From a virus (taxonomy: Duplodnaviria; Heunggongvirae; Uroviricota; Caudoviricetes), in the IMG/VR virus record IMGVR_UViG_2703718843_000003, positions 1 to 22,204 of that record: a stretch of DNA of 22,204 nucleotides. One strand, written 5' to 3'. Below the pieces are notes generated by a model that worked only from the letters and a program-made list of their open reading frames with translations, did not search any database and was not told the origin of the DNA. Numbering within the stretch: position 1 is the stretch's first letter; every line of letters starts with the position of its first letter. This document shows positions 1 to 17,000 of the stretch, one piece after another. The position numbers and the translations under genes were made by a program.

Positions 1-6
1 AGCCGC

Positions 7-32
7 TTCTTTCAAACCAACATTTAGTAAAA
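7..32. other. Putative serine-invertase crossover site (hix/gix-like)
   Basis: TTCTTTCAAACCAACATTTAGTAAAA lies about 55 bp upstream of the invertase start. Left half (TTCTTTCAAACC) resembles the remembered hix/gix half-site TTCTTGAAAACC / TTATCCAAAACC; right half is degenerate. Position directly 5' of the invertase gene is the canonical place for the proximal crossover site. Confidence 0.35.
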
Positions 33-86
33 TGCAGTTTTCCCGTCTGGCTGGCATTATTCGGACTTTTGCATAAGGGAAAGCAG

Positions 87-668
87 ATGCACATTGGCTA
101 TGTGCGCGTATCAACAAATGACCAGAACACGGCATTGCAACGTAACGCGCTTGAAAGTGCAGAATGTGAACTGATATTTGAAGATAAGATCAGCGGTAAG
201 ACATCAGACAGACCTGGGCTTAAAAAGGTGCTCAGGACGCTATCGGAAGGCGATACGTTGGTTGTCTGGAAACTGGATCGACTAGGACGTAGTATGCGCC
301 ACCTTGTTGCGTTGGTGGAAGAACTGCGGGAACGTGGTATTAATTTTCGCAGCCTGACAGACAGCATCGACACTTCTACACCGATGGGGCGCTTCTTCTT
401 TCATGTCATGGGTGCGCTGGCAGAAATGGAAAGAGAATTGATCATTGAGCGTACGCGTGCAGGATTAGCCGCTGCACGCGCGCAAGGAAGGATCGGAGGC
501 AGGAGACCAAAACTAACACCAGAACAATGGGCGCAGGCTGGGAGGCTAATAGCGGCAGGTGAAACACGGCAGAGGGTTGCCATAATTTACGATGTTGGAA
601 TATCAACGCTTTATAAAAAATTTCCGGCAACCAAAAGTAAGGACTCCGGCATGCACCGCCAGCTTTAA
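87..668 (+). CDS. Serine DNA invertase (Gin/Hin/Pin/Cin family resolvase-invertase)
   Basis: N-terminus MHIGYVRVSTNDQN with catalytic Ser context, VVWKLDRLGRS motif, C-terminal HTH (GRIGGRRPKLT...STLYKK); near-collinear with remembered Gin/Hin sequences. ATG at 87 preceded by AAGGGAAA; the track start at 69 is a TTG extension. Confidence 0.92.
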   Translation: MHIGYVRVSTNDQNTALQRNALESAECELIFEDKISGKTSDRPGLKKVLRTLSEGDTLVVWKLDRLGRSMRHLVALVEELRERGINFRSLTDSIDTSTPMGRFFFHVMGALAEMERELIIERTRAGLAAARAQGRIGGRRPKLTPEQWAQAGRLIAAGETRQRVAIIYDVGISTLYKKFPATKSKDSGMHRQL

Positions 669-752
669 CCATGCTGACCATGCGTATCGAGTACAGCCAT
701 TTTTAACGGTGCTGTAGCACTGTCAGTTATGGTAGTGTGTGCCGGAAGATGA

Positions 753-779
753 AGCGGGCAAATGCCCGCTTTAGTTTTA
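753..779. terminator. GC hairpin (GCGGGC-AAAT-GCCCGC) followed by TTTAGTTTT; possible bidirectional terminator between invertase and gene U
   Basis: Perfect 6-bp GC stem with 4-nt loop and T-rich tail on + strand; sits between convergent genes. Confidence 0.45.
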
Positions 780-790
780 TGTGGATGTTG

Positions 791-1279
791 TCAGAACAGG
801 CCCGACAGCTTACTACTGGCAGAGTTGTAGGCGGACGTGGCTTTATCCTTCAAGCCAGAAAGTAAATCGCCAACAGACGACGCTTGCAGACGCTCGCGTA
901 AATCTTCATCACAGCGCTGAAAGCTGATCGAAAACTCAATTTTTTTTGCCTTTCCGTAGCGGTCAAATTCCGTATGCGTGGCCTGTAGCCCAGTCAGCAC
1001 ATACATCCCGTAAATCTGCCCTGCACCGCTGATTAAAGGCCACGGACGCCCGGTGTATGCCTGCGTTGCCAGAACGGTAAGAGACACGTCGCCGCCCGTA
1101 ATCTCAGGGTAAAGCACCCCGTCAAGGTTGATCTGCGTTTCACCAGCGCCGATGTACTGCCATTTTGCCGATCGGTTGATGCGATCATTCTTCACATGAC
1201 GCCAGTTCAGCGAGTGGCGTAACTGCTGGTAAGGCAGTGTCTTCAGTTCAAAAACGAACATCCCGTATATCATCATCAT
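791..1279 (-). CDS. U: Phage tail protein gpU (P2 U homolog)
   Basis: 162-aa ORF directly downstream of the tape measure gene on the same strand; SD AGGGGAGG 7 nt upstream of ATG at 1279; sequence (WRHVKNDRINRS..WQYIGAGETQINLDGVLYPEITGG) matches my recollection of P2 gpU. Confidence 0.85.
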   Translation of the reverse strand: MMMIYGMFVFELKTLPYQQLRHSLNWRHVKNDRINRSAKWQYIGAGETQINLDGVLYPEITGGDVSLTVLATQAYTGRPWPLISGAGQIYGMYVLTGLQATHTEFDRYGKAKKIEFSISFQRCDEDLRERLQASSVGDLLSGLKDKATSAYNSASSKLSGLF

Positions 1280-1293
1280 AATGTTGCCTCCCC

Positions 1294-4200
1294 TTAATCT
1301 CTGTCTTTGAAGCTGCCGCGATTGAGTCGCGCAAGGCGGGCCATTTCGGCATTCACTGCGTCGGCGGCAATCCGGCCAATTTCGCGAGCGTCCTGCCGGT
1401 CAACGCCGTGGAGGTGTACGTGGATTTCCCCCGTAAAGCCGCCAGCGGCAACCGATGTATTGCTGGCGCTGCGACTGACTGGTAAAAGTTCAGCCTGTTT
1501 AACGGGAAGCGATGCCGCCACCACTGCGGGGCGTGCGCTTAACCCGTTGTTCCTGACCGTGCTGGCCAGTTGCGATTCCTTCCATTCCCCACGAACGGCC
1601 AGCGCACGCGGCAGGTTTTTAAACACGATATCGCCGGGGCCGATCTTCTTCGTGTTATCGGCTGTCGCTTTAGTGTTGCTGTCGATGCTTTGCAACCTGC
1701 GCATAGTGCCGTTATCGCCGGTCAGCGGTGATGTGGGTTGCGGTGCGCCAGGCGGAACGTTATTCACCTCAACTTTTTTCGGCGTAACCTTCGCGATATC
1801 TCCCTGAAGAAGGGCGACTTTGTCCTGAAGAACAGCCATGCGCTGTGCGTCTTCGATCTTCTTTCTGGCTTTTTCGGCCTCATCTGGCAGAACGCCGAGC
1901 TTTTCAAGGATCCAGGCTAATGTATCCAGCAGCATTTTTGCAGGCGTCAGAACAAGCTGGAGCGCACCACCAAGAACGTTACCGAATACCTCACCGGCGC
2001 TGGCGCACTTATCCAGTGTTTCCTTGCAGGACTCCATCGGGGAAAGCAGAGATTTGAACCAGTTAAAGGCCTGGCTGACAGCGCTGCCTATCGCGTCAAA
2101 GATGGGTCTGAACTGCGAGAAGGTGTCACGTAACGGGGCCAGTCTTTCCATGATGCCGGTGAATACGCCAGCAAAAAATGCTTTAAGAGGCTCCCAGTAA
2201 CGCCAGATAAGCACCCCGGCAGCAATAAACGCCGCCACTATCAGGCCAATCGGACTCAACAGCAGCGACAGCGCTGTACCCAGCATAGACACCGCCGCAG
2301 TGATCATGCTCCATATGGCCGGTAAACCTGTCAGGCGAAGGGCGAGCATACCGAGGTTTTTTGTCAGTGCTCCCAGCGCGGCACCAGGTGTAAGAAATAC
2401 CCCCATGAGTGCGCCGCGCATAGCGGGGATGATGGTTGAAATTCCGCGCATTTTTCCTGCTAACGAGCCGAGAACTGGCCCCCATCCGCGCACGCTTGCC
2501 ATTGCCGGGCCGGAAGCTGTGCCGAGTGTTCGCAGAGCGGCAATCGTTCCGGTTATGCCTCTGCCCCCTGTCAGCAGGGTAAAACTTAACTGAAGTTTAG
2601 CCAGTGGACCCATCAGCAGACCGATCGCCAGCGATGTGCCGCCAATGGCGGCGGTCAGTGCCAGAACGCTACCACCGACAACCAGCAGGGATTGTGCGAG
2701 CTTCGGATTCTCCTTAGCCCACTGCGTCATATTCCCCACAACGTCACTCAGTCCCTGAGTCAGGCCACGAAGCTGATTGTTGACGAGATCGTTAATCTGG
2801 ATGCGGAAGCCTTCCCAGGCGCTGTCCAGATTTTTGAGATCGCCATCAAGGTTATCCGCCATTATTTTGGCGGCTTTCTGCGCCTCACCTTTGGCGTTTT
2901 TCAGTTCACCCAGCAGCTTCTGAAGTTCACCGCTACCGGCTGACATAACCAGAGCCTGGAATGACTTTGACGCCTCTTCACCGGCAATATCTTTGAAGAA
3001 TGAGAGCTTATCGGTATCCCCGTACTTGCTGATCTTTTTATAGAGATCGGTTAGAACCACTTCAGCAGGGCGCATTTTCCCCGTTGCGTCAGCGACTTCT
3101 ACGCCCAATTCTTTAAGCGCGGTTTTTGCCCTGCCGGTTGGTGCGGCAAGGCGTGAAAATGTGGCCTGCAAACCCGTACCGGCGATACTCCCGCGCAGGC
3201 CTACGTTCGCCATCACGCCGATCATGGCCGTGGTCTGTTCGACGCTGACTCCAAGGTTGGAAAGACCTGTCCCGGCGTACTTCATCGCTTCACCGATATT
3301 TTGCAGATCGGTGTTGGTTCTGGTGAACGCGCCAGTTAATACGTCGCTGACGCGATCCATTTCTTTGGGGTCGAGACGGAACTGAGACAGGATGTTTGAG
3401 CTGATATCAGCGCTTTCACCTAAATCCATACCACCGGCCAGCGCCATATTGAGCACACCAGGCAGTGCGGCCTGAATGGCCTGCGGAGTGAAACCGGCCA
3501 TAGCGAGAAATGCCTGCCCACTGGCGGCGTCGGTCGTGGTGAACTGTGTTTCAGCACCCAGCTTTTTGGCCTGGTCACGAAGTGCTGAAAAGTCAACGGA
3601 GCTTTTATCTATGCGGGTCAGCGCCTGCACGCGGGACATTTCCCGATCAAACCCAACGGCGGGGGATAAGAACCGCCCCGCTACGTAACCGGCAGCAGTG
3701 GCCCCGGCAACGGCCATCGTGCCACCGCCGCGAAGTTTACCCGCTGTTTGCTGCATCTGGTCGTAGCGTGCGCGTGCCTGCGTGACAGCGGCAAGCTGTC
3801 GCCGTTCCCGCTCAAGCGTCTGGTTGTACTGTTCGGTTCGACGTATGGCACTCTGAATGGTGCGATCGCTTCCGACAAGTGAAACGCCGTGACTGCGCAG
3901 CGCCTGTGAGGCGGCGCGCAGCTTAACCATTTCCTGTGTGCGTGCAGAGTTAAGGCGCTCCAGCTTTGCGGCCAGCGCTGCCATATGTGCTTTTTGCTTG
4001 TCTGTAAGCTGTGTACCTTCCCGCTGCGCCTGATTCAGCCCTTCAAGCGTCCGGCTGGCGTCGTCAATTTTGCGGGAGGTCTTTTGCACGCTGTCGCGCA
4101 GACGGTTGAATGTGCGGGACTGACTGTCCAGATCTTTAATGCTGGACTGCGTTTTTTTGAGGGATTCAGACAAACCGCCCGCACTCTGGCGGGCGGCATT

Positions 4201-4296
4201 GACCGGGCGGGTAAGTTTATCGATCGCGCTGAACGCGACGCGGATATTAAGGCTTTTCACTGTCACTGGCTCCACTTCGGACAGCCGCCCGCTCAC
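1294..4296 (-). CDS. T: Tail tape measure protein gpT
   Basis: 1000-codon ORF; coiled-coil N-terminal third, Gly/Ala-rich hydrophobic central region, position between E/E' and U. The codon at 4296 is GTG, not ATG; alternative GTG starts at 4266 and 4260 (GGAG 9 nt upstream of the latter), so the 5' end is uncertain. Confidence 0.85.
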   Translation of the reverse strand: MSGRLSEVEPVTVKSLNIRVAFSAIDKLTRPVNAARQSAGGLSESLKKTQSSIKDLDSQSRTFNRLRDSVQKTSRKIDDASRTLEGLNQAQREGTQLTDKQKAHMAALAAKLERLNSARTQEMVKLRAASQALRSHGVSLVGSDRTIQSAIRRTEQYNQTLERERRQLAAVTQARARYDQMQQTAGKLRGGGTMAVAGATAAGYVAGRFLSPAVGFDREMSRVQALTRIDKSSVDFSALRDQAKKLGAETQFTTTDAASGQAFLAMAGFTPQAIQAALPGVLNMALAGGMDLGESADISSNILSQFRLDPKEMDRVSDVLTGAFTRTNTDLQNIGEAMKYAGTGLSNLGVSVEQTTAMIGVMANVGLRGSIAGTGLQATFSRLAAPTGRAKTALKELGVEVADATGKMRPAEVVLTDLYKKISKYGDTDKLSFFKDIAGEEASKSFQALVMSAGSGELQKLLGELKNAKGEAQKAAKIMADNLDGDLKNLDSAWEGFRIQINDLVNNQLRGLTQGLSDVVGNMTQWAKENPKLAQSLLVVGGSVLALTAAIGGTSLAIGLLMGPLAKLQLSFTLLTGGRGITGTIAALRTLGTASGPAMASVRGWGPVLGSLAGKMRGISTIIPAMRGALMGVFLTPGAALGALTKNLGMLALRLTGLPAIWSMITAAVSMLGTALSLLLSPIGLIVAAFIAAGVLIWRYWEPLKAFFAGVFTGIMERLAPLRDTFSQFRPIFDAIGSAVSQAFNWFKSLLSPMESCKETLDKCASAGEVFGNVLGGALQLVLTPAKMLLDTLAWILEKLGVLPDEAEKARKKIEDAQRMAVLQDKVALLQGDIAKVTPKKVEVNNVPPGAPQPTSPLTGDNGTMRRLQSIDSNTKATADNTKKIGPGDIVFKNLPRALAVRGEWKESQLASTVRNNGLSARPAVVAASLPVKQAELLPVSRSASNTSVAAGGFTGEIHVHLHGVDRQDAREIGRIAADAVNAEMARLARLNRGSFKDRD

Positions 4297-4725
4297 GCCA
4301 GGCTATGACTTCGCCCAGTTCCATCGTGAAGACTTCAGAGGGCGGCCAGTTGAAAACAACCGCGATATCAGCGACCAGATCGTCGATCAGGTCGAACCGC
4401 AGGAGTGTTACTGATTCTCCGTCTCCGCCTCGCTCGACGCTCCAGACCCCGCAGGTGTCAAAAAAGGGACGAGCGCTTCAGACAGGCTGACAAAATCGCG
4501 CGTATCCATTTCGTTGATTTCGGTCTGTTTGAGGCGTGGTGACGTGACACGGGTCAGCAGTACCGCCACCGAATCCACATCCATATTCATCACGTTGACC
4601 AGCTTCAGACCGCGCAGGGAGCCAGCCTGTTTGATCTCATCCGTGATCGTTACCTGAGTAATTTTCTCATCGCCGCGAACAACGGGTTTTGCCAGAGTAA
4701 TGGCGTTATCGTTTTTTTTGCTCAT
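4247..4725 (-). CDS. E': gpE+E' fusion made by programmed -1 ribosomal frameshift
   Basis: After a -1 slip at T TTT TTG (+ strand 4459-4465) the reading frame stays open for about 70 codons (DTCGVWSVERGG...WPPSEVFTMELGEVIAWRERAAVRSGASDSEKP) and ends at TAA 4247-4249, overlapping the start of T. Hand-translated from the sequence. Confidence 0.6.
4408..4725 (-). CDS. E: Tail assembly chaperone gpE (zero-frame product)
   Basis: Starts MSKKNDNAITLAKPVV with GGAG 11 nt upstream of ATG at 4725; upstream of T on the same strand as in P2; contains the slippery site near its 3' end. Confidence 0.8.
   Translation of the reverse strand: MSKKNDNAITLAKPVVRGDEKITQVTITDEIKQAGSLRGLKLVNVMNMDVDSVAVLLTRVTSPRLKQTEINEMDTRDFVSLSEALVPFLTPAGSGASSEAETENQ
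4459..4465 (-). other. Slippery heptamer T-TTT-TTG for the E to E' -1 frameshift
   Basis: Minus-strand CCC TTT TTT GAC in the gpE frame; the canonical X XXY YYZ heptamer used by P2-like and lambda-like tail chaperone pairs. Confidence 0.6.
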
Positions 4726-4773
4726 TGTTGAATGCTCCGGGCGGCAAGGCTGTGCCGCCACTTATCAGGTTAA

Positions 4774-5289
4774 TCAGTTACCCATTCCCAGCGCAGACGT
4801 GATGCGGTCAGGGTAGATATTTTTGCCGTCTTTCTTGTAGATGAAGTTCAGAAGATCAAACTCAAACAGCGGCTTATCGTCGATGGTGAGTTTGTAATAA
4901 GTGTTCTTCATCGTGTAGCTGACGGAGGTGTCTTCTCCCTGCTTGCTTTCGCCGCCGTCCATTTCGGTGATGCGGCCGCGCAGTTCGACCTCAACCAGCA
5001 GGCTTTCACCATCGGTGTAATACTCCCCGGCGAAGCGGAAACGGGTTTCGTCGATATCGCCGCAGTAGTTCAGCAGTAACGACTGAACCAGACCGCCAAC
5101 CACCATCGTGGTATCCAGCGCGCCACTGTCCAGACCGAGATCCACCGCAGCGGAGCCAATCATCCCGCCCCCCTGAAAATCTTCAGTTTTACGGGTCAGT
5201 TTTGGCAGCGTCACGGAAGAGACTTTGCCGATGCAGTTGCTGCCGTTCACAAAGCAGGTGAACAGGCGTAGTTTGTGAGGAACCGCCAT
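4774..5289 (-). CDS. FII: Tail tube protein gpFII
   Basis: 171-aa ORF immediately downstream of the sheath gene (FI stop and FII ATG adjacent at 5290/5289); size and position match P2 FII. Confidence 0.9.
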   Translation of the reverse strand: MAVPHKLRLFTCFVNGSNCIGKVSSVTLPKLTRKTEDFQGGGMIGSAAVDLGLDSGALDTTMVVGGLVQSLLLNYCGDIDETRFRFAGEYYTDGESLLVEVELRGRITEMDGGESKQGEDTSVSYTMKNTYYKLTIDDKPLFEFDLLNFIYKKDGKNIYPDRITSALGMGN

Positions 5290-6471
5290 TTATGCACCTC
5301 CCAGGGAAGAAAACGCCGATTCGAAATACTCGTCCGTGAAGGTCTGGTAGAGCGTAAGATCTTCCATTGGCGGAACCGGTGTATATTTATAGCGAATGCG
5401 CACCTGACCCTGACGGAGACCGGTTGTCGGGTTATCCAGGATATCAAACCAGCATTCAGCACCAATCAGCCGCCCCTGCGTCACCAGCGAATTGAGTTTG
5501 CCGCTGATGCCGCTGACCACGTCCTTGACGTTGGCCGGGGTTAGCGGTTCGTCCACTGATTCAAATTGCGCCTCAGCGATACTGTCAGCCAGAATCTGTG
5601 CCGTACGGGTGTAAACCTCAAAAATATAATCTTTGGTGTCCGTAACGCGGTTGCCCCAGAACCGGAAACCATTACGCTTGATGAGCGTCGTGATCTCCTT
5701 GTTGTTGAGTTCGTTCGCGTCGCTGTCTTCGGCCTGAAGCGACCAGAAAACATCCTGCGAAATACCCAGCACGTTGCTTACCGACACATTGGAAAGCGAT
5801 TTGTGCCAGCCCTGATTGTTGTCAATCAGCGCGCGAAGGCCGCAGGCATAGGCCGGGGCCGGGAAGGTTTCGTTCTCTCCGGTCAGCGGGTTGTAGGCGA
5901 TGAAATCAGGCCAGATAAGCATTAGCTCGCGATAGGCGAAGGTCGCACGATATGCGGTAGCTTCAGCCATCGTTTTGCAGCCGTAGCAACTGGCGTAAAC
6001 AAACGCGCGCAAATTCTGAGCAATCACACACAACGCAGAAGTGACTTCTTCCGTGTCGTAGCCCGGCACGGCCAGAATGCGTGGACGATAACCAACCTTC
6101 TGCTCGGCAGTCAGAAACGCGTACATGCCGGTATAGCTGCCGTCTTCTGCCGTGCCACCCATGATGAGCTGCGACTGCGTTTTACCGCCTTCCTCTTCCG
6201 TGGCTGCTGCCACGCGCACAACGATAACCTTCGGACTGGTCTGGTCAGCGATGGCTTTAAGCGTTTTGTACAGGGAGCCGGTTTTACCCGCCTTATCCAG
6301 CACGTTGTTAACCCGCGTCAGCAACACGGGGGTATTCAGGGGAAAGGTTTCCGCATCGGCATCATCCGCCACGGCAACGACCCCAATGACACTTGATTCA
6401 ATGTCATTGATGGCCGTCACCAGGTCGGTATTCTCCCGGACGCGTACACCGTGGAAACGTGTCTCTGACAT
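5290..6471 (-). CDS. FI: Contractile tail sheath protein gpFI
   Basis: Start chosen at ATG 6471 (MSETRFHGVRV...), preceded by GGTGG, matching the remembered P2 FI N-terminus MSDYHHGVQV; conserved C-terminal region (GFRFWGNR...YKYTPVPPMEDLT). The track ORF start at 6516 is an upstream extension. Confidence 0.9.
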   Translation of the reverse strand: MSETRFHGVRVRENTDLVTAINDIESSVIGVVAVADDADAETFPLNTPVLLTRVNNVLDKAGKTGSLYKTLKAIADQTSPKVIVVRVAAATEEEGGKTQSQLIMGGTAEDGSYTGMYAFLTAEQKVGYRPRILAVPGYDTEEVTSALCVIAQNLRAFVYASCYGCKTMAEATAYRATFAYRELMLIWPDFIAYNPLTGENETFPAPAYACGLRALIDNNQGWHKSLSNVSVSNVLGISQDVFWSLQAEDSDANELNNKEITTLIKRNGFRFWGNRVTDTKDYIFEVYTRTAQILADSIAEAQFESVDEPLTPANVKDVVSGISGKLNSLVTQGRLIGAECWFDILDNPTTGLRQGQVRIRYKYTPVPPMEDLTLYQTFTDEYFESAFSSLGGA

Positions 6472-6624
6472 GTTAGCCACCATTACGTTATTGAGTTCGC
6501 AGTGATAATCCCTCATGTTGGAATGTCACTCACGCTATTGCGGGTCTGGCCGGACGGCGACAACAAAAACCGATTTGGTGTCTCCCGCGCGCGTGGGATC
6601 CTTCGCCGGAAGAAGGGGGAAAGC

Positions 6625-7761
6625 ATGGCACTTACAGACCTGACAAAATCACTTAACGACGCCATCAGCACTTATAACGATTCACTGACCGAGGCGGTAA
6701 AAAGTCCGGGATTCAGCATAACGATGGGCGGTAAGGTACGGACGCAGCTTGACGAGCGGATCATGTCGTTGTCACTGACGGACAACCGGGGTTTTGATGC
6801 CGATCAGCTTTCCATTTCTATTGATGACAGTGACGGTATGGTTGCTCTGCCTCCGCGTGGCGCTGAGCTTGCGGTATCAATTGGCTGGCTGGGTGAGCCG
6901 CTGATTTACAAGGGACTGTACACGGTTGATGAGGTATCCCATGAAGGGCCGGGTGATATCATTGGTATTACTGCCCGCAGCGCTGATTTTCGTGAAGAGT
7001 TCAACGTAAAGCGCGAAGTCTCATGGCATGACGTGACCGTTGAGCGCGTTGTGTCGGCCATAGCGCACCGCTACGGTCTGAAAGCGCAGATCAGTGAAAT
7101 GCTCATGGATATTGAGATTGATCACGCTGACCAGACGCAGGAAAGCGATATGTCATTCCTTACCCGCATGGCGGAAATGCTGGGCGCAATTGCCACCGTA
7201 AAGAACGGCAGTCTGCTGTTTATCCTGCCGGGCGGAGGTGTTACCGCTGACGGGAAGGCGCTCCCCTCTGCCAGTATTAACCGGACGAGCGGCGATCGGC
7301 ACCGCTTTCGTATTGCCGATCGGGATGCGTATACCGGCGTCAGGGCTTACTGGCTGGATCTCAATTTTGGCAAAAAGAAAAAGGTCAGTGTTAAGCGCCG
7401 TAAGCCAGCAAAGCCCAAAAAAGAGAAGAGCAGCAGCCGTGAGGGCGATTACATGGAGGGCGCTGACGGTAACGTCTATGTGCTGCGCAAAACCTACCAG
7501 AATGAAGAGGCGGCGAAACGTGCTGCGGCGGCAAAATGGCAACAGCTTCAGCGTGGTGCGGCAGAGTTTTCGATCACCCTGGCGCGTGGCCGCGCTGAGC
7601 TTTACCCCGAAATGCATGTCACGGTTAGCGGTTTTAAGGATGAAATAGACAATCAGGACTGGATTATTGCGCGTGCTGAGCACGTCATAGACGACAGCGG
7701 TTTTACCACCCGGCTGGAGCTGGAAGCAAAAATACCTGACTGGATAGCGGAAACTGAATAA
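6625..7761 (+). CDS. D: Tail protein gpD (late control gene D family)
   Basis: ATG at 6625 with AAGGGGGA SD; sequence (SLTDNRGFDADQL..SWHDVTV..DRHRFRIADRDAYTGV..KWQQLQRGAAEFSI) matches my recollection of P2 gpD including the basic lysine-rich linker. Confidence 0.9.
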   Translation: MALTDLTKSLNDAISTYNDSLTEAVKSPGFSITMGGKVRTQLDERIMSLSLTDNRGFDADQLSISIDDSDGMVALPPRGAELAVSIGWLGEPLIYKGLYTVDEVSHEGPGDIIGITARSADFREEFNVKREVSWHDVTVERVVSAIAHRYGLKAQISEMLMDIEIDHADQTQESDMSFLTRMAEMLGAIATVKNGSLLFILPGGGVTADGKALPSASINRTSGDRHRFRIADRDAYTGVRAYWLDLNFGKKKKVSVKRRKPAKPKKEKSSSREGDYMEGADGNVYVLRKTYQNEEAAKRAAAAKWQQLQRGAAEFSITLARGRAELYPEMHVTVSGFKDEIDNQDWIIARAEHVIDDSGFTTRLELEAKIPDWIAETE

Positions 7762-7800
7762 AATGAAATGGAGTTCAACTCCCACAGGGGAGCCATCATT

Positions 7801-8049
7801 ATGTTCAGATGTCCATTTTGCGGCGCTATGGCCCGCACCCGTACCAGCCGTAAAATAACCGATATGACTATCCGGCAATATCACCAGTGTCAGAATCTGG
7901 AATGTAGCCGGTCATTCACCACGCTAAACAGCGTGGAAAGGGAAGTAACAAAGCGTGCAGGCACTGCACCGTTACCGCCTGACTTTATCCCCCGCGATGC
8001 TTTCCCGGCATCACATTACGGCAGAGACCAGCTTAATCTGGCTCTCTGA
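7801..8049 (+). CDS. ogr: Ogr/Delta-family zinc-finger late transcription activator
   Basis: MFRCPFCGAMARTRTSRKITDMTIRQYHQCQNLECSRSF carries the C-x2-C...C-x4-C finger and closely resembles remembered P2 Ogr; GGGGAG SD 8 nt upstream of ATG 7801; directly follows D as in P2. Confidence 0.85.
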   Translation: MFRCPFCGAMARTRTSRKITDMTIRQYHQCQNLECSRSFTTLNSVEREVTKRAGTAPLPPDFIPRDAFPASHYGRDQLNLAL

Positions 8050-8174
8050 CCACTGTCAAAGTGCCCCCGTAAATCCATTCAGTGCGGGGGCAACTTCAAG
8101 CAAAACGCTTTTTCCAGAGAAAATATCTTTGATAACATCGGTCAGCATATTAATAGCGATGATGGGATAGGGAT

Positions 8175-8558
8175 ATGAAAAAGGTGTTGTTAATACTGGC
8201 TTTGGTTTCTCTTGTTGGATGCAAGCCCAGCGCTGAAAAAGCTGTTGAACTAGGTAAGTCAGAAGTTGCAGCAGATGTTAGGGATCCAGATAGCGTAAAA
8301 TTTAGATATCTTCGATTTGTTCAGGGTGAGGATTCACCTGATGGTGCGGTCACTGGCTATGTTTGCGGTCAGATCAATGCGAAAAATGGCTTTGGGGCTT
8401 ACGAAGGATTCTCTCCATTCCTTATGAAAATAAGCATGAAATCAAAGGGTACATTTTCCAAGGGGGTCACCTACTCTGTAACGGAGAAGAAAATCTACAC
8501 CCGGTTTAGTGACCCAGTACCAGCGTCATACAAAGACAAGTGCGGCCCTGATGAGTGA
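8175..8558 (+). CDS. Secreted lipoprotein (cargo/moron gene), function unknown
   Basis: N-terminal signal peptide MKKVLLILALVSLVG followed by lipobox Cys (LVGC, Cys16) and K at +2; lower GC than flanking core genes; followed by a strong intrinsic terminator. Sits between ogr and the att region, where P2 itself has no gene as far as I recall. Confidence 0.75.
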   Translation: MKKVLLILALVSLVGCKPSAEKAVELGKSEVAADVRDPDSVKFRYLRFVQGEDSPDGAVTGYVCGQINAKNGFGAYEGFSPFLMKISMKSKGTFSKGVTYSVTEKKIYTRFSDPVPASYKDKCGPDE

Positions 8559-8576
8559 GGGATGTTTCAGTAAGAT

Positions 8577-8600
8577 GCCGGGCAGAAGCCCGGCTTTTTT
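8577..8600 (+). terminator. Rho-independent terminator after the lipoprotein gene
   Basis: GCCGGGC-AGAA-GCCCGGC perfect 7-bp stem followed by TTTTTT. Confidence 0.7.
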
Positions 8601-8693
8601 ATGTCGAAGTGTAGTCAAAATGTAGACGAAGTTTAGAATAAATCCTTTTATTCCAGTTTGTTACATGCGGAATATCTTCACCATCCCTGTCTT

Positions 8694-8720
8694 CCCCCAC
8701 ATGATGTGGGGGTTTTTTTT
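8694..8720 (+). terminator. Second hairpin plus T8 tract inside the att region
   Basis: CCCCCAC-ATGAT-GTGGGGG followed by TTTTTTTT; may be the reconstituted terminator of the host gene the phage integrates next to, or part of the attP core. Confidence 0.55.
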
Positions 8721-8732
8721 ATCAATCACTTA
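8720..8732. promoter_or_regulatory. IHF-consensus site (WATCAANNNNTTR) in the att region
   Basis: TATCAATCACTTA matches the IHF consensus exactly; located between the hairpin and the Int arm-type repeats. Confidence 0.35.
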
Positions 8733-8805
8733 CATCGGTTTCCGTAAGAAAACAGTAACTTAAGAAAACCTATAAGGGACTGGAAGGGCTACAAAGTTCT
8801 GAGAG

Positions 8806-8826
8806 TGTGGACACTATGTGGACACT
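8806..8826. repeat. Tandem direct repeat TGTGGACACT x2 (putative Int arm-type P' sites)
   Basis: Perfect 10-bp tandem copies separated by 1 bp, 12 bp from the int stop codon; matches the P2 Int arm-site consensus TGTGGACA as I remember it. Degenerate copies (GTGTAGTC, TGTAGACG) occur at 8609-8628 on the other side. Confidence 0.5.
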
Positions 8827-8838
8827 CAGAAGGGAAAT

Positions 8839-9819
8839 TTATAACGTCACTCCGCCTTTTAGAGGATTCAGCGCGACGGCATTTTGCAGGTAGTCAGGCG
8901 CAAGGTGCGCATAGGCCATCGTCTGCTGAATGCTCGCATGTCCCAGAATCTGTTGCAGTGCGATTATATTGCCCCCATTCATCATGAAATGGCTTGCGAA
9001 TGTATGCCGCAGGATGTGGGTTGCCTGATTGGGTGGTATATCTGGCTTCACTCTGCGTAAAATCCCGCAAAACTTCTCATAATCAACTTTGAATAATTTA
9101 GCGCTGGCCTCCTCTTTAACTTTTTTCTCCAGTTCCTCAGAAATCGGCACGGTTCGCTTTTTACCGTTTTTGGTTTTCAGGAAGGTAACCCTGCAATTTG
9201 TAATCTGTGCTGGTTTTAGCGTGGCAACTTCCGTCCATCTTCCTCCAGTGCTCAGACATAAAAGTGCGACAAGTAAGTCATCACCATCCAAAACATTTAA
9301 CAGTTTTTCGATTTCTGCCTTTTCCAGGAACGTCATTTCAGGGTTGGCCTCCGCCAGTGGCGGCAGTCCGTGAATTGGGTGTTGCCCGGAAAATTCATCC
9401 AATTGAATTAATTTTGTGAACATGCCGGATAATCGGTACATGTCACGGTTTATCGTTGCGGCACTGATACCATTTCGTAGTCGCATGGAACGATAATCCA
9501 TCAAAGCTCTTTTGCTCATCCGGCTCACTGGTATATCACCTATGCCGCTGATGGTTTTGAGCAGATGATTAAACTCTTTTGTTCCATGCTCGTGGTTTTG
9601 CCCGTGATATTTCCACCAGATGTCCAGCAACTCACTCAAAGTTCTGCGATCTGCTCGCTGACCTGCCCATTCTTTCTGGCTGGCGTAGGCGATTGTGTAT
9701 CGCTCAAATGCTACAGCCTCAGCTTTTCTTTCAAATTTCCTGCGGATGCGTTTTCCGTCGCGACCGCGAGGTCTAATGTCCACTTCATAGCGTCCATCAT
9801 CGAGCTTCTTAATTGACAT
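8839..9819 (-). CDS. int: Tyrosine integrase (P2 Int family)
   Basis: Start MSIKKLDDGRYEVDIRPRGRDG matches the remembered P2 Int N-terminus; C-terminal catalytic region with HxLRHT (ATHILRHTFASH) and the conserved Tyr context (MAYAHLAP). Confidence 0.9.
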   Translation of the reverse strand: MSIKKLDDGRYEVDIRPRGRDGKRIRRKFERKAEAVAFERYTIAYASQKEWAGQRADRRTLSELLDIWWKYHGQNHEHGTKEFNHLLKTISGIGDIPVSRMSKRALMDYRSMRLRNGISAATINRDMYRLSGMFTKLIQLDEFSGQHPIHGLPPLAEANPEMTFLEKAEIEKLLNVLDGDDLLVALLCLSTGGRWTEVATLKPAQITNCRVTFLKTKNGKKRTVPISEELEKKVKEEASAKLFKVDYEKFCGILRRVKPDIPPNQATHILRHTFASHFMMNGGNIIALQQILGHASIQQTMAYAHLAPDYLQNAVALNPLKGGVTL

Positions 9820-9888
9820 AAGAAAGCCCTCTGACGCTGTATTCACCATCTTGGTAACAAATGGTGAAAATGTAATGTTTATAGAGTG

Positions 9889-10182
9889 TTAACCAGTCTG
9901 TTTTTCGGAGTGGTCTGATTCTGTTGGTTTTTGCCCAATGTGTGCGAGAGCCGGCGCGATCTGACCAGCTTGTGGTGACGTATCACCAGTCATTAACCAG
10001 AGCGTATATTTTTTAAATAAAGGCGTATTTGTGACTCGCATAACGATGCTGAGACCAGGGTCTTTATGCCCACTTTCGTAATTTTTGACTGTTCCTAGAG
10101 CTATCCCGCTAATTTCGCTGAATTTCGCCTGTGTTAAGCCTTCTGCTTTCCTAATCGCTTTCAGTTTTTCGAATGTCTGCAT
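9889..10182 (-). CDS. C: Immunity repressor C (P2 C family, HTH)
   Basis: 97 aa; N-terminal HTH and C-terminal TKYTLWLMTGD...QAGQIAPALAHIGQ match the remembered P2 C repressor; divergent from cox with face-to-face promoters. Confidence 0.85.
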   Translation of the reverse strand: MQTFEKLKAIRKAEGLTQAKFSEISGIALGTVKNYESGHKDPGLSIVMRVTNTPLFKKYTLWLMTGDTSPQAGQIAPALAHIGQKPTESDHSEKQTG

Positions 10183-10238
10183 TTGACAGTAACCTATTGG
10201 TGACTTATATTCCCGTCAAAAGGTTGTGTATTGGTGAC
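10183..10238 (+). promoter_or_regulatory. Early promoter Pe (TTGACA-N17-TATATT) with two direct operator repeats TATTGGTGAC
   Basis: -35 TTGACA at 10183-10188, -10 TATATT at 10206-10211, 17-bp spacer; 10-bp direct repeats at 10195-10204 and 10229-10238 flank the -10, the arrangement described for P2 C operators O1/O2. Confidence 0.5.
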
Positions 10239-10254
10239 CTTTTGAGTGTGTTAG

Positions 10255-10295
10255 CCAGTCCCTAGAAAGGACAGGGGCGACCTAGAAGGGACTGG
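10255..10295. repeat. Imperfect palindrome CCAGTCCC...GGGACTGG enclosing two CCTAGAA(A/G)GG repeats
   Basis: Perfect 8-bp inverted repeat arms 10255-10262 and 10288-10295 with internal direct repeats, upstream of cox; candidate Cox/Pc regulatory element. Confidence 0.3.
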
Positions 10296-10334
10296 ATCTA
10301 ATAAGGGTAACACGAAAGCAAAAAGGGCTAATCA

Positions 10335-10607
10335 ATGGAAGTCAATGACTATGTGATTCAGTACCCGATTGATGCGGTACATACGGTTAAGTTTGCAGAG
10401 TTACTTGGTAAGCCAGAAACGGCTGTAGTCAAGATGGTAAAAGAGAATAAATTGCCAGTTATTGAGCTTCGTGATCCAAGTAAGCCGAACGCTCGTGTCG
10501 GTGAGAAGTGGGTTTTCATTCCAGAGTTTAATCGCGCTGTACGAGAGGCGTTTTATAACCGACCAGTTGAACAGCGTGATGCATGGCTTTTGTGGATGGG
10601 GTTGTGA
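10335..10607 (+). CDS. cox: Cox (excisionase / lytic-switch repressor of Pc)
   Basis: 90 aa at the P2 cox position; KLPVIEL...GEKWVFIPEFN...RDAWLLWMGL resembles remembered P2 Cox. Confidence 0.8.
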   Translation: MEVNDYVIQYPIDAVHTVKFAELLGKPETAVVKMVKENKLPVIELRDPSKPNARVGEKWVFIPEFNRAVREAFYNRPVEQRDAWLLWMGL

Positions 10608-10609
10608 TT

Positions 10610-10780
10610 ATGAGTGAACCGCGTTGTATTGCTCAGTTACTGCGTAACGAAAGCCCCAGGGCGATTGACTTCACCATCACCCACGGTAAGGGGCGTAAGG
10701 GAATCATTATCCGCACCAAAAAACAGAGTCCGTTAAAAAAGGCTCTGACCTTTCTGAAAAGCTGGAGGGTCTGGAAATGA
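10610..10780 (+). CDS. Small hypothetical protein (P2 orf78 position)
   Basis: ATG 10610 three nt after cox stop; stop overlaps gene B start (ATGA); basic 56-aa product. Confidence 0.45.
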   Translation: MSEPRCIAQLLRNESPRAIDFTITHGKGRKGIIIRTKKQSPLKKALTFLKSWRVWK

Positions 10781-11277
10781 CAGTGATGACGCTCAATCTC
10801 GTTGAAAAACAGCCAGCAGCTATGCGCCGGATAATTGGCAAGCATCTTGCCGTCCCTCGCTGGCAGGATACATGTGATTATTATAATCAGATGATGGAAC
10901 GCGAACGGCTAACGGTTTGCTTCCATGCGCAGTTAAAACAACGTCACGCAACGATGCGTTTTGAAGAAATGAACGACGTCGAACGTGAACGGCTGGTTTG
11001 TGCAATTGATGAATTGCGTGGGGCATTCTCAAAACGCCGTCAGGTCGGTGCAAGTGAGTATGCATATATTAGCTTTTTAACTGTCAGTCAGCGCCGTACT
11101 TTATTTATGCATGCCAGATTGACTGAAAAAGAATTCAACCAGCCATACTGGCGAATTAATGAAGAGTCATGTTACTGGCGTGATGCTTTATTCCGTGCAT
11201 TACGTGAATTATTCAGCCTGTTTGAGTATGCACCGACAATTCTGACGTCGGTAAAACCAGAGCAATATCTGCATTAA
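10777..11277 (+). CDS. B: Replication protein gpB (helicase-loader-like)
   Basis: 166 aa; sequence essentially collinear with my recollection of P2 gpB (MTVMTLNLVEKQPAAMRRIIGKHLAVPRWQDTCDYYNQMMERERL...). Confidence 0.85.
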   Translation: MTVMTLNLVEKQPAAMRRIIGKHLAVPRWQDTCDYYNQMMERERLTVCFHAQLKQRHATMRFEEMNDVERERLVCAIDELRGAFSKRRQVGASEYAYISFLTVSQRRTLFMHARLTEKEFNQPYWRINEESCYWRDALFRALRELFSLFEYAPTILTSVKPEQYLH

Positions 11278-11340
11278 GTAATTAACCAGAGTTTTTAACG
11301 CACTTAATTGTGCGGGGCTTCTTTTTGCCTGGAGAAAGTC

Positions 11341-11565
11341 ATGCATACAGTTTCTGAAAATCAGTGCGGTAAATACGTATTACTGCTGCAACAGGCCAGA
11401 ACCGAAGCACAGGCCGACGCGGCGACGCGCTTTTCTTCTCATCTTGACGCCATGATTCGCCACATCACAAAGGCGGAGTTATCCCGCGTGGAGATAGTCG
11501 AGCTGCTCAGTCAGGAGTCGGAAAAATTTCACAATATCGGATTGTCTCGCGGGGAGGTGCTTTGA
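11341..11565 (+). CDS. Hypothetical protein (P2 orf80 position)
   Basis: ATG 11341 with GGAGAAAG SD; stop overlaps next start (TGATG). Confidence 0.45.
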
Positions 11566-11867
11566 TGTCCTGTTCTCATTCAGTTGTATTACTGAATAAC
11601 GCCTTAAAAATCGCCGTTATGGGAAATGGTGATTTGTCTCTTATTCAACTTTGTCTTGATAAAGAAAAACGCGACATAACTGAATCTGTTATCGCGATTT
11701 ATCAGAATGAATTAAACCTTCTGTCTGATGTGGTCAATTTACTTGTTAAACGCGCTGTATTCCACAAGCAAATTTCCTCCGTGGATGAACTGACAAAATT
11801 AACGACAGAAATCGTCAGCTATTGCGCTGATGAATTTAAGAAACTGAACGACAAAAGGAACTGGTAA
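11565..11867 (+). CDS. Hypothetical protein (P2 orf81 position)
   Basis: ATG 11565 with GGGGAGG SD; translationally coupled to neighbours. Confidence 0.5.
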   Translation: MSCSHSVVLLNNALKIAVMGNGDLSLIQLCLDKEKRDITESVIAIYQNELNLLSDVVNLLVKRAVFHKQISSVDELTKLTTEIVSYCADEFKKLNDKRNW

Positions 11868-12091
11868 TGCCGGACAACGTAGATTTCATTCAGGAACAAC
11901 AGGCTGAATTACTGGAGCGCCAGATTAACGCGGCAAGGGTAAAACATTGCGGTGTTTCTGCGCTGGTTTGCGAAGAGTGTGACGTGCCAATACCTGCTGC
12001 CCGTCGTGCGGCTTATCCGTCAGCCACGCGTTGTGTTTCCTGTCAGTCAGTCTTTGAAGCAAAAAACAAACATTACCGGAGAATGGCATGA
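11867..12091 (+). CDS. TraR/DksA-family C4 zinc-finger protein (P2 orf82 position)
   Basis: C-x2-C ... C-x2-C motif (VCEECDVPIP...RCVSCQ) typical of the phage TraR/DksA family; start overlaps previous stop (TAATG). Confidence 0.7.
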   Translation: MPDNVDFIQEQQAELLERQINAARVKHCGVSALVCEECDVPIPAARRAAYPSATRCVSCQSVFEAKNKHYRRMA

Positions 12092-12363
12092 GTATTCGTA
12101 TCGAAATTGGCGAACGTTATGTCGTTACCAGTGACAGCTTTCAGTTTATTCTCCACGAGAAAAAGAGAGCGGAAAGCGGTAAAAACGCCGGTCAGGAGTG
12201 GCTGGCGGTGGTTGGTTATTACCCGAAATTAAGCCAGCTCGTTTCCGGCCTGATGCATCACGATATTCTGACCGGAAGCGCAAAGTCTTTTGCTGATTTA
12301 AACGCGCAGGTTGAGCAACTCAGCAAGCGTTGTTCAGAGGCTTTTGGCTCATATGACCGTTAA
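12088..12363 (+). CDS. Hypothetical protein (P2 orf83 position)
   Basis: 91-aa ORF overlapping the start of gene A. Confidence 0.5.
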   Translation: MSIRIEIGERYVVTSDSFQFILHEKKRAESGKNAGQEWLAVVGYYPKLSQLVSGLMHHDILTGSAKSFADLNAQVEQLSKRCSEAFGSYDR

Positions 12364-14629
12364 AGCCTCCGGGCATTTTGTCCCTCCGTCAGCATTTGCC
12401 GCAGGCACCGGTGAGACGTTTACCGGTGCTTATGCATGGAACGCGCCACGCGAGGCCGTCGGGCGCGAAAGACCCCTTACACGTGACGAGATGCGTCAGG
12501 TGCAAGGTGTTTTATCCACGATTAACCGCCTGCCTTACTTTTTGCGCTCGCTGTTTACTTCACGCTATGACTACATCCGGCGCAATAAAAGCCCGGTACA
12601 CGGGTTTTATTTCCTCACATCCACTTTTCAGCGTCGTTTATGGCCGCGCATTGAGCGCGTGAATCAGCGCCATGAAATGAACACCGACGCGTCGTTGCTG
12701 TTTCTGGCAGAGCGTGACCACTATGCGCGTCTGCCGGGGATGAATGACAAGGAGCTGAAAAAGTTTGCCGCCCGTATTTCATCGCAGCTTTTCATGATGT
12801 ATGAGGAACTCTGCGATGCCTGGGTGGATGCGCATGGCGAAAAAGAATCACTGTTTACGGATGAGGCGCAGGATCATCTGTATGGTCATGTTGCTGGCGC
12901 TGCACGTGCTTTCAATATTTCCCCGCTCTACTGGAAAAAATACCGTAAAGGACAGATAACCACGAGGCAGGCATATTCTGCCATTGCCCGCCTGTTTAAC
13001 GATGAGTGGTGGACTCATCAGCTTAAAGGCCAGCGTATGCGCTGGCATGAAGCGTTACTGATAGCTGTCGGGGAGGTCAATAAAGACCGTTCTCCTTATG
13101 CCAGTAAACATGCCATTCGTGATGTGCGTGCGCGCCGCCAGGCAAATCTGGAATTTCTTAAATCGTGTGACCTTGAAAACAGGGAAACCGGCGAGCGCAT
13201 CGACCTTATCAGTAAGGTGATGAGCAGTATTTCTAATCCTGAAATTCGCCGGATGGAGCTGATGAACACCATTGCCGGTATTGAGCGTTACGCCGCTGCA
13301 GAGGGTGATGTGGGGATGTTTATCACGCTGACCGCGCCGTCAAAGTATCACCCGACACGTCAGGTCGGAAAAGGCGAAAGTAAAACCGTCCAGCTTAATC
13401 ACGGCTGGAATGATGAGGCATTTAATCCAAAGGATGCGCAGCGATATCTCTGCCATATCTGGAGCCTGATGCGCACGGCATTCAAGGATAATGATTTACA
13501 GGTCTACGGTTTGCGAGTCGTCGAGCCACACCACGACGGAACGCCGCACTGGCATATGATGCTTTTTTGTAATCCACGCCAGCGTAACCAGATTATCGAA
13601 ATCATGCGTCGCTATGCGCTCAAAGAGGATGGCGACGAAAGAGGAGCCGCGCGAAACCGTTTTCAGGCAAAACACCTTAACCGGGGCGGTGCTGCGGGGT
13701 ATATCGCGAAATACATCTCAAAAAATATCGACGGCTATGCACTGGATGGTCAGCTCGATAACGATACCGGCAGACCGCTGAAAGACACTGCCGCGGCTGT
13801 TACCGCATGGGCGTCAACGTGGCGCATTCCGCAATTTAAAACGGTTGGCCTGCCGACAATGGGGGCTTACCGTGAACTACGCAAATTGCCTCGCGGCGTC
13901 AGCATTGCTGATGAGTTTGACGAACGCGTCGAGGCTGCACGCGCTGCCGCAGACAGTGGCGATTTTGCGCTGTATATCAGCGCGCAAGGTGGGGCAAATG
14001 TCCCGCGCGATTGTCAGACTGTCAGGGTTGCCCGTAGCCCGTCGGATGACGTTAACGAGTATGAGGAAGAAGTCGAGAGAGTGGTCGGCATTTACGCGCC
14101 TCATCTCGGCGCGCGTCATATTCATATCACCAGAACGACGGACTGGCGCATTGTGCCGAAAGTGCCAGTCGTTGAGCCTTTGACTTTAAAAAGCGGCATC
14201 GCCGCGCCTCGGAGTCCTGTCAATAACTGTGGAAAGCTCACCGGTGGTGATACTTCGTTACCGGCTCCCACACCTTCTGAACACGCCGCAGCAGTGCTTA
14301 ATCTGGTTGATGACGGTGTTATCGAATGGAATGACCCGGAGGTCGTGAGGGCGCTCAGGGGCGCATTAAAATACGGGCTGAGAACACCAAATCGTCAGCA
14401 GAGAAACGGAAGCCCGTTAAAACCACATGAAATTGCACCATCGGCCAGACTGACCCGGTCGGAAAGAATGCAAATTACCCGTATCCGCGTTGACCTTGCT
14501 CAGAACGGTATCAGGCCGCAGCGATGGGAGCTTGAGGCGCTGGCGCGTGGCGCGACCGTAAATTATGACGGGAAACCTTTCACTTATCAGGTCGCTGATG
14601 ATTGGCCGGGATTTTTGTTACCCATTTGA
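12353..14629 (+). CDS. A: Replication initiation endonuclease gpA (rolling-circle nickase)
   Basis: Start MTVKASGHFVPPSAFAAGTGETFTGAYAWNAPREAVGRERPLTRDEMRQ is near-identical to the remembered P2 gpA; contains the HUH-like GTPHWHMMLF region and the active-site Tyr region AGYIAKYISKNIDGYAL. Confidence 0.9.
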   Translation: MTVKASGHFVPPSAFAAGTGETFTGAYAWNAPREAVGRERPLTRDEMRQVQGVLSTINRLPYFLRSLFTSRYDYIRRNKSPVHGFYFLTSTFQRRLWPRIERVNQRHEMNTDASLLFLAERDHYARLPGMNDKELKKFAARISSQLFMMYEELCDAWVDAHGEKESLFTDEAQDHLYGHVAGAARAFNISPLYWKKYRKGQITTRQAYSAIARLFNDEWWTHQLKGQRMRWHEALLIAVGEVNKDRSPYASKHAIRDVRARRQANLEFLKSCDLENRETGERIDLISKVMSSISNPEIRRMELMNTIAGIERYAAAEGDVGMFITLTAPSKYHPTRQVGKGESKTVQLNHGWNDEAFNPKDAQRYLCHIWSLMRTAFKDNDLQVYGLRVVEPHHDGTPHWHMMLFCNPRQRNQIIEIMRRYALKEDGDERGAARNRFQAKHLNRGGAAGYIAKYISKNIDGYALDGQLDNDTGRPLKDTAAAVTAWASTWRIPQFKTVGLPTMGAYRELRKLPRGVSIADEFDERVEAARAAADSGDFALYISAQGGANVPRDCQTVRVARSPSDDVNEYEEEVERVVGIYAPHLGARHIHITRTTDWRIVPKVPVVEPLTLKSGIAAPRSPVNNCGKLTGGDTSLPAPTPSEHAAAVLNLVDDGVIEWNDPEVVRALRGALKYGLRTPNRQQRNGSPLKPHEIAPSARLTRSERMQITRIRVDLAQNGIRPQRWELEALARGATVNYDGKPFTYQVADDWPGFLLPI

Positions 14630-14814
14630 GTAAAAATACAGCGTGATTTTATATGTCTTTGAATGGATTATGCGAAGCACCTCTAAGGTAGATGAGGAGC
14701 AATAGTGTGTTGAATCAGAAGGCTAAATTGTATTGAATCGTTAGCATGTAATTGAAGGCAGCTATTTGATTCGAGTCATAAAAGAGCATCTATTTCGGTT
14801 AATAAAACCATTGC

Positions 14815-14860
14815 GAGTGACTTTATGTCGAAGCATAATTCATCTCGAGCGAAGTCTTGC
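14815..14860. repeat. Direct repeat copy 1 (GAGTGACT ... GAGCGAAGTCTTGC)
   Basis: Shares an 8-mer and a perfect 14-mer with copy 2 at 15100-15124; copy 1 has a 24-bp internal expansion. Confidence 0.45.
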
Positions 14861-14889
14861 TAGTCTTTCATCGGATTGATGACGGGCGC

Positions 14890-14919
14890 AAAAAAACCAC
14901 CCTGGCAGGTGGTTTTTTT
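14890..14919. terminator. Bidirectional rho-independent terminator (A7-CCACC..GGTGG-T7)
   Basis: Symmetric hairpin flanked by an A run and a T run; closes the replication operon on + and the small minus-strand ORF on -. Confidence 0.65.
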
Positions 14920-14931
14920 GTTTGAAGCATA

Positions 14932-15045
14932 CTAAAGAAAAATACTTACATGGATATTACTGACGTTTACTGACAAACCACTCGGACTACCATATGGATA
15001 GCCAAAGAGGGCCAGAACGAGAATGCAGTAATAGCACTTCTTCAT
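14932..15045 (-). CDS. Candidate 37-codon mini-gene encoding a small hydrophobic Cys-containing peptide
   Basis: Minus-strand AGGAGG SD 4 nt before ATG (15045); peptide MKKCYYCILVLALFGYPYGSPSGLSVNVSNIHVSIFL; stop TAG at 14932-14934 followed 13 nt later by the bidirectional terminator. Not in the ORF track (below its length cutoff). Coding status unproven. Confidence 0.3.
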   Translation of the reverse strand: MKKCYYCILVLALFGYPYGSPSGLSVNVSNIHVSIFL

Positions 15046-15099
15046 ATCGCCTCCTGTAAGCAGAGGGCAATTTCCGCCGATATATGCGCTTCTAAGGCG

Positions 15100-15124
15100 G
15101 AGTGACTATTGAGCGAAGTCTTGC
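15100..15124. repeat. Direct repeat copy 2 (GAGTGACTATTGAGCGAAGTCTTGC)
   Basis: See copy 1; the two copies bracket the terminator and the mini-ORF. Confidence 0.45.
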
Positions 15125-15701
15125 CCTGAAATAATGCTCTGTTTAAACGCAAAGTGATCTGGCATATCACTGAACAGAGAACCTGAACAACACAACATAT
15201 AGTATGTCGTTGTTTCTGGTTGCATTTTATGTTGTGTAATACTGGTTTTGCATCAAGGATGTTTGAGCTTTTTTTGATATAGCTCAAAGTAAAAAGCAGA
15301 GACTACGGATGATAAGGTCTTGAAAGCAATGTAAATTTTTTAAAGTTGTGAGTGGCTAGAAATGCACAGTTTCAATATGGCGGATTTAAACAAGTAATTA
15401 AAAATAGCGCCATAAATTCCAATAAAATCATTATGTTGCGTTTTCTGTGGAAACTGCGGTGACTCTGAAATTTTCTTTTAGTGTCGCTGAGGTTTAACAA
15501 CTCGCTGCGCAAGTAGTTAGTGTTTTTTTAACTCAATATCCTGATTTATAAGGTTTTTTATAAATCGTTGGCTGATTGCGCGTATTCATCTCGTGTTATC
15601 AGCAAAGATAAGCGCTATATGCAAAACTGAATGCATATATGATGTCGAAAATGTTATGGGAAAACGTGGATTAGTGTTATAGTAATGGCTGAAAAACAGC
15701 A

Positions 15702-15740: not shown

Positions 15741-15766
15741 TAACTTTTTTAACGTAGGAGGCAACC

Positions 15767-16252: not shown

Positions 16253-16278
16253 TTAGCCTTTAACTTTTAACCTGTTTA

Positions 16279-16994: not shown

Positions 16995-17000
16995 GTCGTT

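Follow-up and report, generated by a model that had tools for sequence, protein, structure and literature searches.

In phage P2 (NC_001895), the tail genes FI, FII, E, E', T, U and D and the activator gene ogr are collinear on one strand: the seven genes of the F operon are read as one transcript from the late promoter pF, and U and D abut. Four late promoters of P2 depend on Ogr and have a common element, TGT-N12-ACA (PMC3931495). In the P2 record a single activator site (3057-3087) serves the divergent promoters pP (start at 3016) and pO (start at 3127), and a shared box has likewise been reported for pP'/pO' of phage Smp131 (PMC3931495). Here we analyze the corresponding tail genes in a stretch of 22,204 nucleotides from a virus of the Caudoviricetes (IMG/VR record IMGVR_UViG_2703718843_000003, positions 1 to 22,204; hereafter the window), in which the block from FI to U (791-6471) lies inverted en bloc relative to P2, with breakpoints in the two short spacers at its ends.

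The left part of the window shares with P2 the gene set, the E/E' frameshift signal, a pF homologue and an Ogr activator, but its D (49% identical) is set apart from the other tail genes and has a ribosome-binding site and start region to itself. Much closer are Enterobacter phage phiT5282H (Peduoviridae, Novemvirus; NC_049429) and prophages at the cpxP-fieF site of Escherichia coli (e.g. CFSAN051542 and XYEH3783), which are 94-95% identical to the window in nucleotide sequence over 645-8047/8599 and agree with it in gene order, in the FI-D spacer and in the hairpin after U. They differ from it in two respects: phiT5282H has a tail-fibre assembly gene at the position of the window's invertase gene, and the window's prophage, unlike those compared, is directly followed by a second one. 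Salmonella phages SEN4 and SEN5 (Senquatrovirus) have the same inverted order, the same spacer architecture with a perfect TGT-N12-ACA, and a conserved hairpin after U, although their D is only 63% identical to that of the window.

Orientation of the FI-U block in the window and its relatives

An open reading frame (ORF) map and Pfam matches confirmed every gene that the original prediction had named, together with the strands it had given them. The block runs on the minus strand, from the tail sheath gene FI (5290-6471; Phage_sheath_1, Phage_sheath_1C, Gp18_domIII_N) to the tail gene U (791-1279; Phage_P2_GpU, 3.7e-39). It is flanked on the plus strand by a serine DNA invertase gene of the Hin/Gin/Cin/Pin type (87-668; Resolvase, 3e-51, and HTH_7) on one side, and by the baseplate hub and late control gene D (6625-7761; Phage_GPD) and the zinc-finger late activator gene ogr (7801-8049; Ogr_Delta, 6.3e-17) on the other. 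The start codons of FI and D face each other across a spacer of 153 bp (6472-6624), as had been described, and the stop codons of U and the invertase gene are 122 bp apart (669-790). Comparison with NC_001895 bore out the en-bloc inversion and the placing of its breakpoints.

Two sets of relatives were compared with the window. For the first set, 80 viral IMG/VR contigs with close D homologues were fetched, and local tblastn was used to place their genes; adding phiT5282H and one E. coli prophage brings this set to 82 loci (L001-L082; D 77-99% identical), every one of them inverted. The second set, one genome per bacterial species, was scanned by D-protein alignment, and all 60 species-level loci with a D 58.5-98% identical to that of the window carry the inverted block. 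Thus, at D identities of 58.5% or more to the window, the order U-, T-, E-, FII-, FI-, D+, ogr+ is found in 142 of 142 other loci. These include phiT5282H, SEN5 and prophages of about 30 genera of Enterobacterales, among them Enterobacter, Pantoea, Kosakonia, Erwinia, Serratia, Symbiopectobacterium, Edwardsiella, Pectobacterium and Brenneria, and also Citrobacter, Klebsiella, Salmonella, Photorhabdus, Xenorhabdus, Providencia, Morganella, Hafnia and Yersinia. In megablast comparisons, phiT5282H (94% identity) and seven finished E. coli chromosomes match the window in a single collinear piece across both junctions, and the annotations of these genomes give the same gene order as the window.

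Below a gap in D identity, the arrangement is that of P2. All 20 species-level loci with a D 50-55% identical to the window's are collinear, and in all 22 loci at or below 55%, including P2 and Klebsiella phage KP12, T and U immediately precede D and share its strand (FI was located there as well in 19 of the 22). Neighbour-joining trees were built for one gene outside the inverted block, D, and for one within it, FI, and each shows one clean split, with 59 inverted sequences on one side and 18 collinear ones on the other. Because both trees part the two orders cleanly, the inversion is very probably an old event, most simply a single one, that has become fixed in a deep branch of the Peduoviridae, and we infer that a two-way late promoter goes with it.

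Three points weigh against this reading: the collinear comparison set is small (22 loci), the trees of D and FI have no root, and the collinear order is taken to be ancestral from what is generally known of P2-like phages further removed.

By gene order and by its side of the trees, the window falls in the inverted-block branch (Novemvirus/Senquatrovirus type), and its first prophage is an ordinary member of that branch, alongside Novemvirus, SEN4/SEN5 of Senquatrovirus and many Enterobacterales prophages. All 142 relatives share the orientation, which is the outcome that the original prediction had itself named as a refutation, and so no special event took place in the window; of the three options that had been offered for the unfamiliar order, a real lineage rearrangement is the right one, and the thought that it might be fresh or peculiar to this DNA falls away. 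The gene order is normal for widespread P2-family prophages of Enterobacterales, and it gives annotation and quality-control pipelines no ground to report a misassembly or a recent rearrangement. Whether FI-U runs with D or against it is also a simple marker that parts two deep lineages of the Peduoviridae.

The inverted order is already present in annotated public genomes. The paper on SEN4/SEN5 (PMC5261728) and the papers citing phiT5282H do not mention the inversion, and our literature searches found no paper commenting on it; a paper on Burkholderia P2-like phages and one on a Xenorhabdus tailocin concern other inversions (insertion-sequence ends and tail-fibre segments).

Two of the genomes surveyed deserve a separate remark. 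An assembly labelled Vagococcus sp. WN89Y (NZ_JBQPOM010000071.1; locus L109) contains a P2-family prophage of enterobacterial type with the inverted block and a D 78% identical to that of the window; the Gram-positive label is probably due to contamination or to a mislabelled assembly. The chromosome of Symbiopectobacterium purcellii MEX carries three tail regions of the inverted type (L098, L099 and L100), each with a D about 82% identical.

A predicted two-way Ogr promoter in the FI-D spacer

As the original prediction stated, the inversion separates D from the FI promoter, and D needs a transcription start of its own. The spacer between the two genes contains a predicted Ogr box, TCT-N12-ACA (6545-6562, centre 6553.5), at a place where the dyad of relatives is often perfect (TGT-N12-ACA, or even GTTGT-N12-ACAAC). 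On the FI side of this box, the leftward promoter that had been suggested for 6472-6624 finds a predicted counterpart: a -10 hexamer GATTAT on the minus strand (6505-6510), in a region that aligns base by base with pF of P2, with a predicted start at ∼6498. On the D side, a second predicted -10 hexamer, GATCCT on the plus strand (6597-6602), mirrors the first and would place a rightward late start for D (and ogr) at ∼6609. The two hexamers (read from 6510 to 6505 and from 6597 to 6602) each begin exactly 43.5 nt from the centre of the dyad, and the predicted starts are 111 bp apart.

This geometry is that of pP/pO in P2, where a single dyad (centre 3071.5 in the P2 sequence) serves two -10 hexamers, TAGCCT and GAAACT, each beginning 43.5 nt away, and where the starts, also 111 bp apart, have been mapped, while those of the window are predicted. 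The two sites differ in their surroundings: the P2 box lies between the terminase and scaffold genes, whereas the predicted box in the window lies between sheath and D. In Ogr-dependent promoters of P2 the dyad is centred ∼55 nt upstream of the transcription start. In keeping with such promoters, the window combines weak -10 hexamers and no good -35 with the same dyad distance as the mapped P2 promoters. A scan of the window for the sigma-70 consensus gave a count not above chance and nothing in the FI-D spacer. An exact search of the window for TGT-N12-ACA gave only two matches, both inside genes; the candidate box is one base off.

The dyad of the window taken alone is weak evidence; the case for the promoter is carried by the comparison of relatives. 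Spacers from 37 relatives that share, pair by pair, less than 80% identity in this region were aligned by anchoring each on its best dyad. Conservation extends to the dyad and, at offsets that mirror each other, to positions A2, A5 and T6 of both hexamers: on the FI side each of the three positions is 97% conserved, and on the D side conservation is 86% for A2, 65% for A5 and 84% for T6. On balance we favour the reading that the FI-D spacer is a second two-way late promoter with a single Ogr box, which would have arisen when the inversion set D beside the box of pF. As a second instance of the design mapped in P2 at pP/pO, it is the sole modestly new idea in this analysis; our literature searches found no paper describing a two-way promoter between FI and D.

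Several observations count against this promoter. The dyad in the window is imperfect, with TCT for TGT (5 of 6 core bases), and a score as good came up in 77 of 2000 shuffled versions of the spacer. Anchoring on the best dyad inflates the conservation of the dyad columns, though not that of the -10 columns. The rightward hexamer GATCCT is a poor one, its A5 being the position conserved in only 65% of relatives, and the two transcription starts, at ∼6498 and ∼6609, are predictions only.

The most serious competitor is a reading in which the inversion is fixed but D is driven by an independent promoter, constitutive or otherwise activated, or together with ogr from some other signal, so that the mirror symmetry is a coincidence. 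The weak rightward hexamer and the degenerate half-site of the dyad speak for it, as does the fact that ogr of P2 has its own promoter. Two conserved features found on the D side only, a TT at 6574-6575 (offsets +20.5/+21.5) and a CG-rich CGCGCGCG run at ∼6581-6591 (∼+27 to +37), lie outside the two-way promoter model and are left unexplained by it. Yet the spacer contains no sigma-70 consensus match, and the distance from the dyad to the start of D is only 62 bp, which leaves no room for a second activator site. An independent promoter would also have to accommodate the conservation of A2 and T6 at exact mirror offsets and a 43.5-nt distance identical to that of the mapped pP/pO. We therefore regard it as improbable, though it is the strongest of the alternatives.

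Under the favoured two-way promoter, the sequence of events might have been as follows. The inversion would have put D beside the dyad-symmetric activator box of pF, and a mirror-image -10 would then have evolved or been captured. The Ogr box between FI and D would now work in both directions, with RNA polymerase starting leftward at ∼6498 to transcribe FI-FII-E/E'-T-U and rightward at ∼6609 to transcribe D and possibly ogr. The leftward operon would end at the hairpin beyond U, head-on with the tail-fibre and invertase genes. The neighbouring invertase flips only the tail-fibre segment to the left of the window, whatever the promoter.

If the promoter is as predicted, it would show clearly how a palindromic activator site can let an operon tolerate inversion, and it would allow the hub protein D to be expressed separately from sheath and tube across a whole phage branch. 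For the study of promoter evolution the branch is a natural experiment: at a new locus, a single palindromic Ogr box apparently drives two divergent late transcripts.

The alignment of spacers also revealed a motif that has no mirror image, CACG on the FI side (6530-6534; offsets -22.5 to -19.5); it is conserved in divergent relatives, and the promoter model does not account for it either.

The junctions of the block, the hairpin after U and the invertase

At the other end of the block, where the tail-fibre and invertase genes (+) converge on U (-), a terminator scan found a GC-rich hairpin with its stem at 750-773. The original prediction had noted a hairpin here, and it proved to be real: it folds with an energy of -19.7 kcal/mol on the plus strand and of -14.9 kcal/mol on the minus strand, with z-scores against shuffled sequences of -2.7 and -4.0, respectively, and no shuffle equalled it. 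The same hairpin lies 3' of U in close relatives and in phage SEN5. The hairpin fits a terminator at a convergent junction, as had been suggested, and is likely to act in both directions; because its T-run is better on the plus strand, it probably also stops the tail-fibre/invertase transcript.

The DNA around this hairpin is highly variable among relatives. The first 100 nt past the stop of U (690-790 in the window) occur as 116 distinct sequences, with 82 representatives less than 75% alike, and most relatives keep some strong hairpin past U despite this variability. The stretch that separates the tail-fibre genes from U has the look of an insertion hot spot.

This variability bears on a second alternative, that the inverted order arose several times or spread by exchange of modules. 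P2-like phages are mosaic, their tail modules can be exchanged, and a variable hot spot past U would suit such traffic. Against it, the clean split is the same whether D, external to the block, or FI, within it, is used, D identities leave a gap between 58.5% in inverted and 55% in collinear loci, and the spacer architecture is common to the whole inverted group. A multiple origin is accordingly very unlikely, and a single old inversion remains the simplest account.

The invertase gene invites a third explanation: the serine invertase next to the block, or some other recombinase, might flip it back and forth, the window having captured one of two states. The segments inverted by Hin, Gin, Cin and Pin are bounded at both ends by crossover sites of 26 bp with AAACC-type half-sites, in inverted orientation. 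Enzymes of this kind invert segments of kilobase size, and the window has a serine invertase gene, only 122 bp from the end of the block, and one crossover site, at its left edge. The block itself is unlike such segments: flanking sites are absent and it has never been seen flipped. A search for inverted and direct repeats over 1-8700 found pairs at chance level only, none of them joining 669-790 with 6472-6624. A scan for Hin/Gin/Cin/Pin-type crossover sites, with a half-site consensus, gave no better than 9 of 18 at either junction, and thus no inverted sites flank the two ends of the block. The earlier statement that the junctions lack clear inverted repeats holds on both counts.

The best match of that scan, and the sole good half-site match in the window, is a Pin/Cin-type crossover site at 7-32 (TTCTTTCAAACCAACATTTAGTAAAA), just upstream of the invertase gene. 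Its score was also reached by 11 of 100 shuffles, and we take the site to be real because of its position and because of its partner in a relative (locus L002). There, the homologous site (9001-9042) pairs as an inverted repeat with 7129-7170, inside a tail-fibre gene 1.8 kb away, and it follows that the invertase serves the usual tail-fibre switch. The site at 7-32 bounds on the right an invertible tail-fibre segment extending off the left end of the window, and it lies outside the FI-U inversion. Moreover, the invertase gene adjoins U in only 12 of the 142 inverted-order relatives, so that about 90% of them have no such gene beside U, and it is also found in collinear relatives, beside FI. 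The invertase is an accessory gene of the tail-fibre switch, uninvolved in the inversion of FI-U. With the alternative orientation in 0 of the 142 relatives, the inversion polymorphism that had been entertained is refuted among them, and we give a reversible segment almost no credence.

An assembly artefact, in which a contig segment was misjoined or flipped, has nothing in its favour beyond the unfamiliar order and is practically excluded, because the same order and junction sequences recur in finished chromosomes, in an isolated phage genome and in dozens of independent assemblies, and the junction spacers hold conserved, functional-looking signals.

Gene content and the second prophage

The rest of the block is that of a contractile-tail module of the P2 family (Peduoviridae), of which FI, FII, E/E', T, U, D and Ogr/Delta are all present. 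The tail tube gene FII (4774-5289; Phage_tube, 2e-45), the tail chaperone gene E (4408-4725; Phage_TAC_7) and the tape measure gene T (1294-4296; PhageMin_Tail, 1.7e-52) follow FI on the minus strand. A P2-type slippery site, T TTT TTG, lies in E at 4465-4459 (-), and translation in the -1 frame continues to 4247, giving an E+E' frameshift product encoded by 4247-4725 (-). The start of T is uncertain: comparison with the annotation of CFSAN051542 puts it at ∼4260-4296, overlapping the end of E'. D is 96.8% identical to D of phiT5282H.

Between ogr and the attachment site lies an ORF of 127 amino acids (8175-8558, +), followed by a strong terminator (8577-8594). Searches of this ORF against Pfam and PADLOC gave no match. 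Because ORFs of equal length (384 nt) occupy the matching position in E. coli CFSAN051542, E. coli 1332KP and phage SEN5, it is probably a conserved moron. An Rfam search of the whole window at the gathering threshold gave no matches.

The window consists of two tandem prophages at the cpxP-fieF attachment site of E. coli, a point that the original prediction had missed. The att core of 45 bp (8679-8723, the cpxP terminator sequence), common to attL of E. coli AH21 and attR of E. coli CFSAN051542, is where prophage 1 ends on the right and prophage 2 begins. The stretch 8679-22204 has 100% identity with a canonical P2-type prophage in E. coli AH21, one that adjoins cpxP and has its invertase and sheath genes on the same strand, and the left part of the window matches prophages whose right end abuts fieF. 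Finished E. coli 1332KP has the same tandem layout, an inverted-type prophage followed directly by a P2-type prophage; the exact junction of the window was found in none of the complete E. coli genomes in the collection. The genes int, C, cox, A, Q, P and O belong to prophage 2, and the inverted block, D and ogr to prophage 1; the tandem arrangement leaves the finding on the inverted block unaffected. On this evidence, a reading of the window as a single circularly permuted phage genome is wrong.

Prophage 2 carries low-GC cargo at 14630-18360 (GC content 0.37-0.41), between the replication gene A and the portal gene Q, the position at which P2 carries tin and old. It includes a gene for an ImmA/IrrE-type peptidase (15767-16252; Peptidase_M78), whose best PADLOC match is capP (1e-30), and two ORFs (16319-16918, +, and 17001-17942, -) for which searches of Pfam and PADLOC gave no match. 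The cargo may be a defence cassette. Further along prophage 2, the intergenic region between P and O (21172-21300) is almost base for base that of P2, including the annotated shared activator site.

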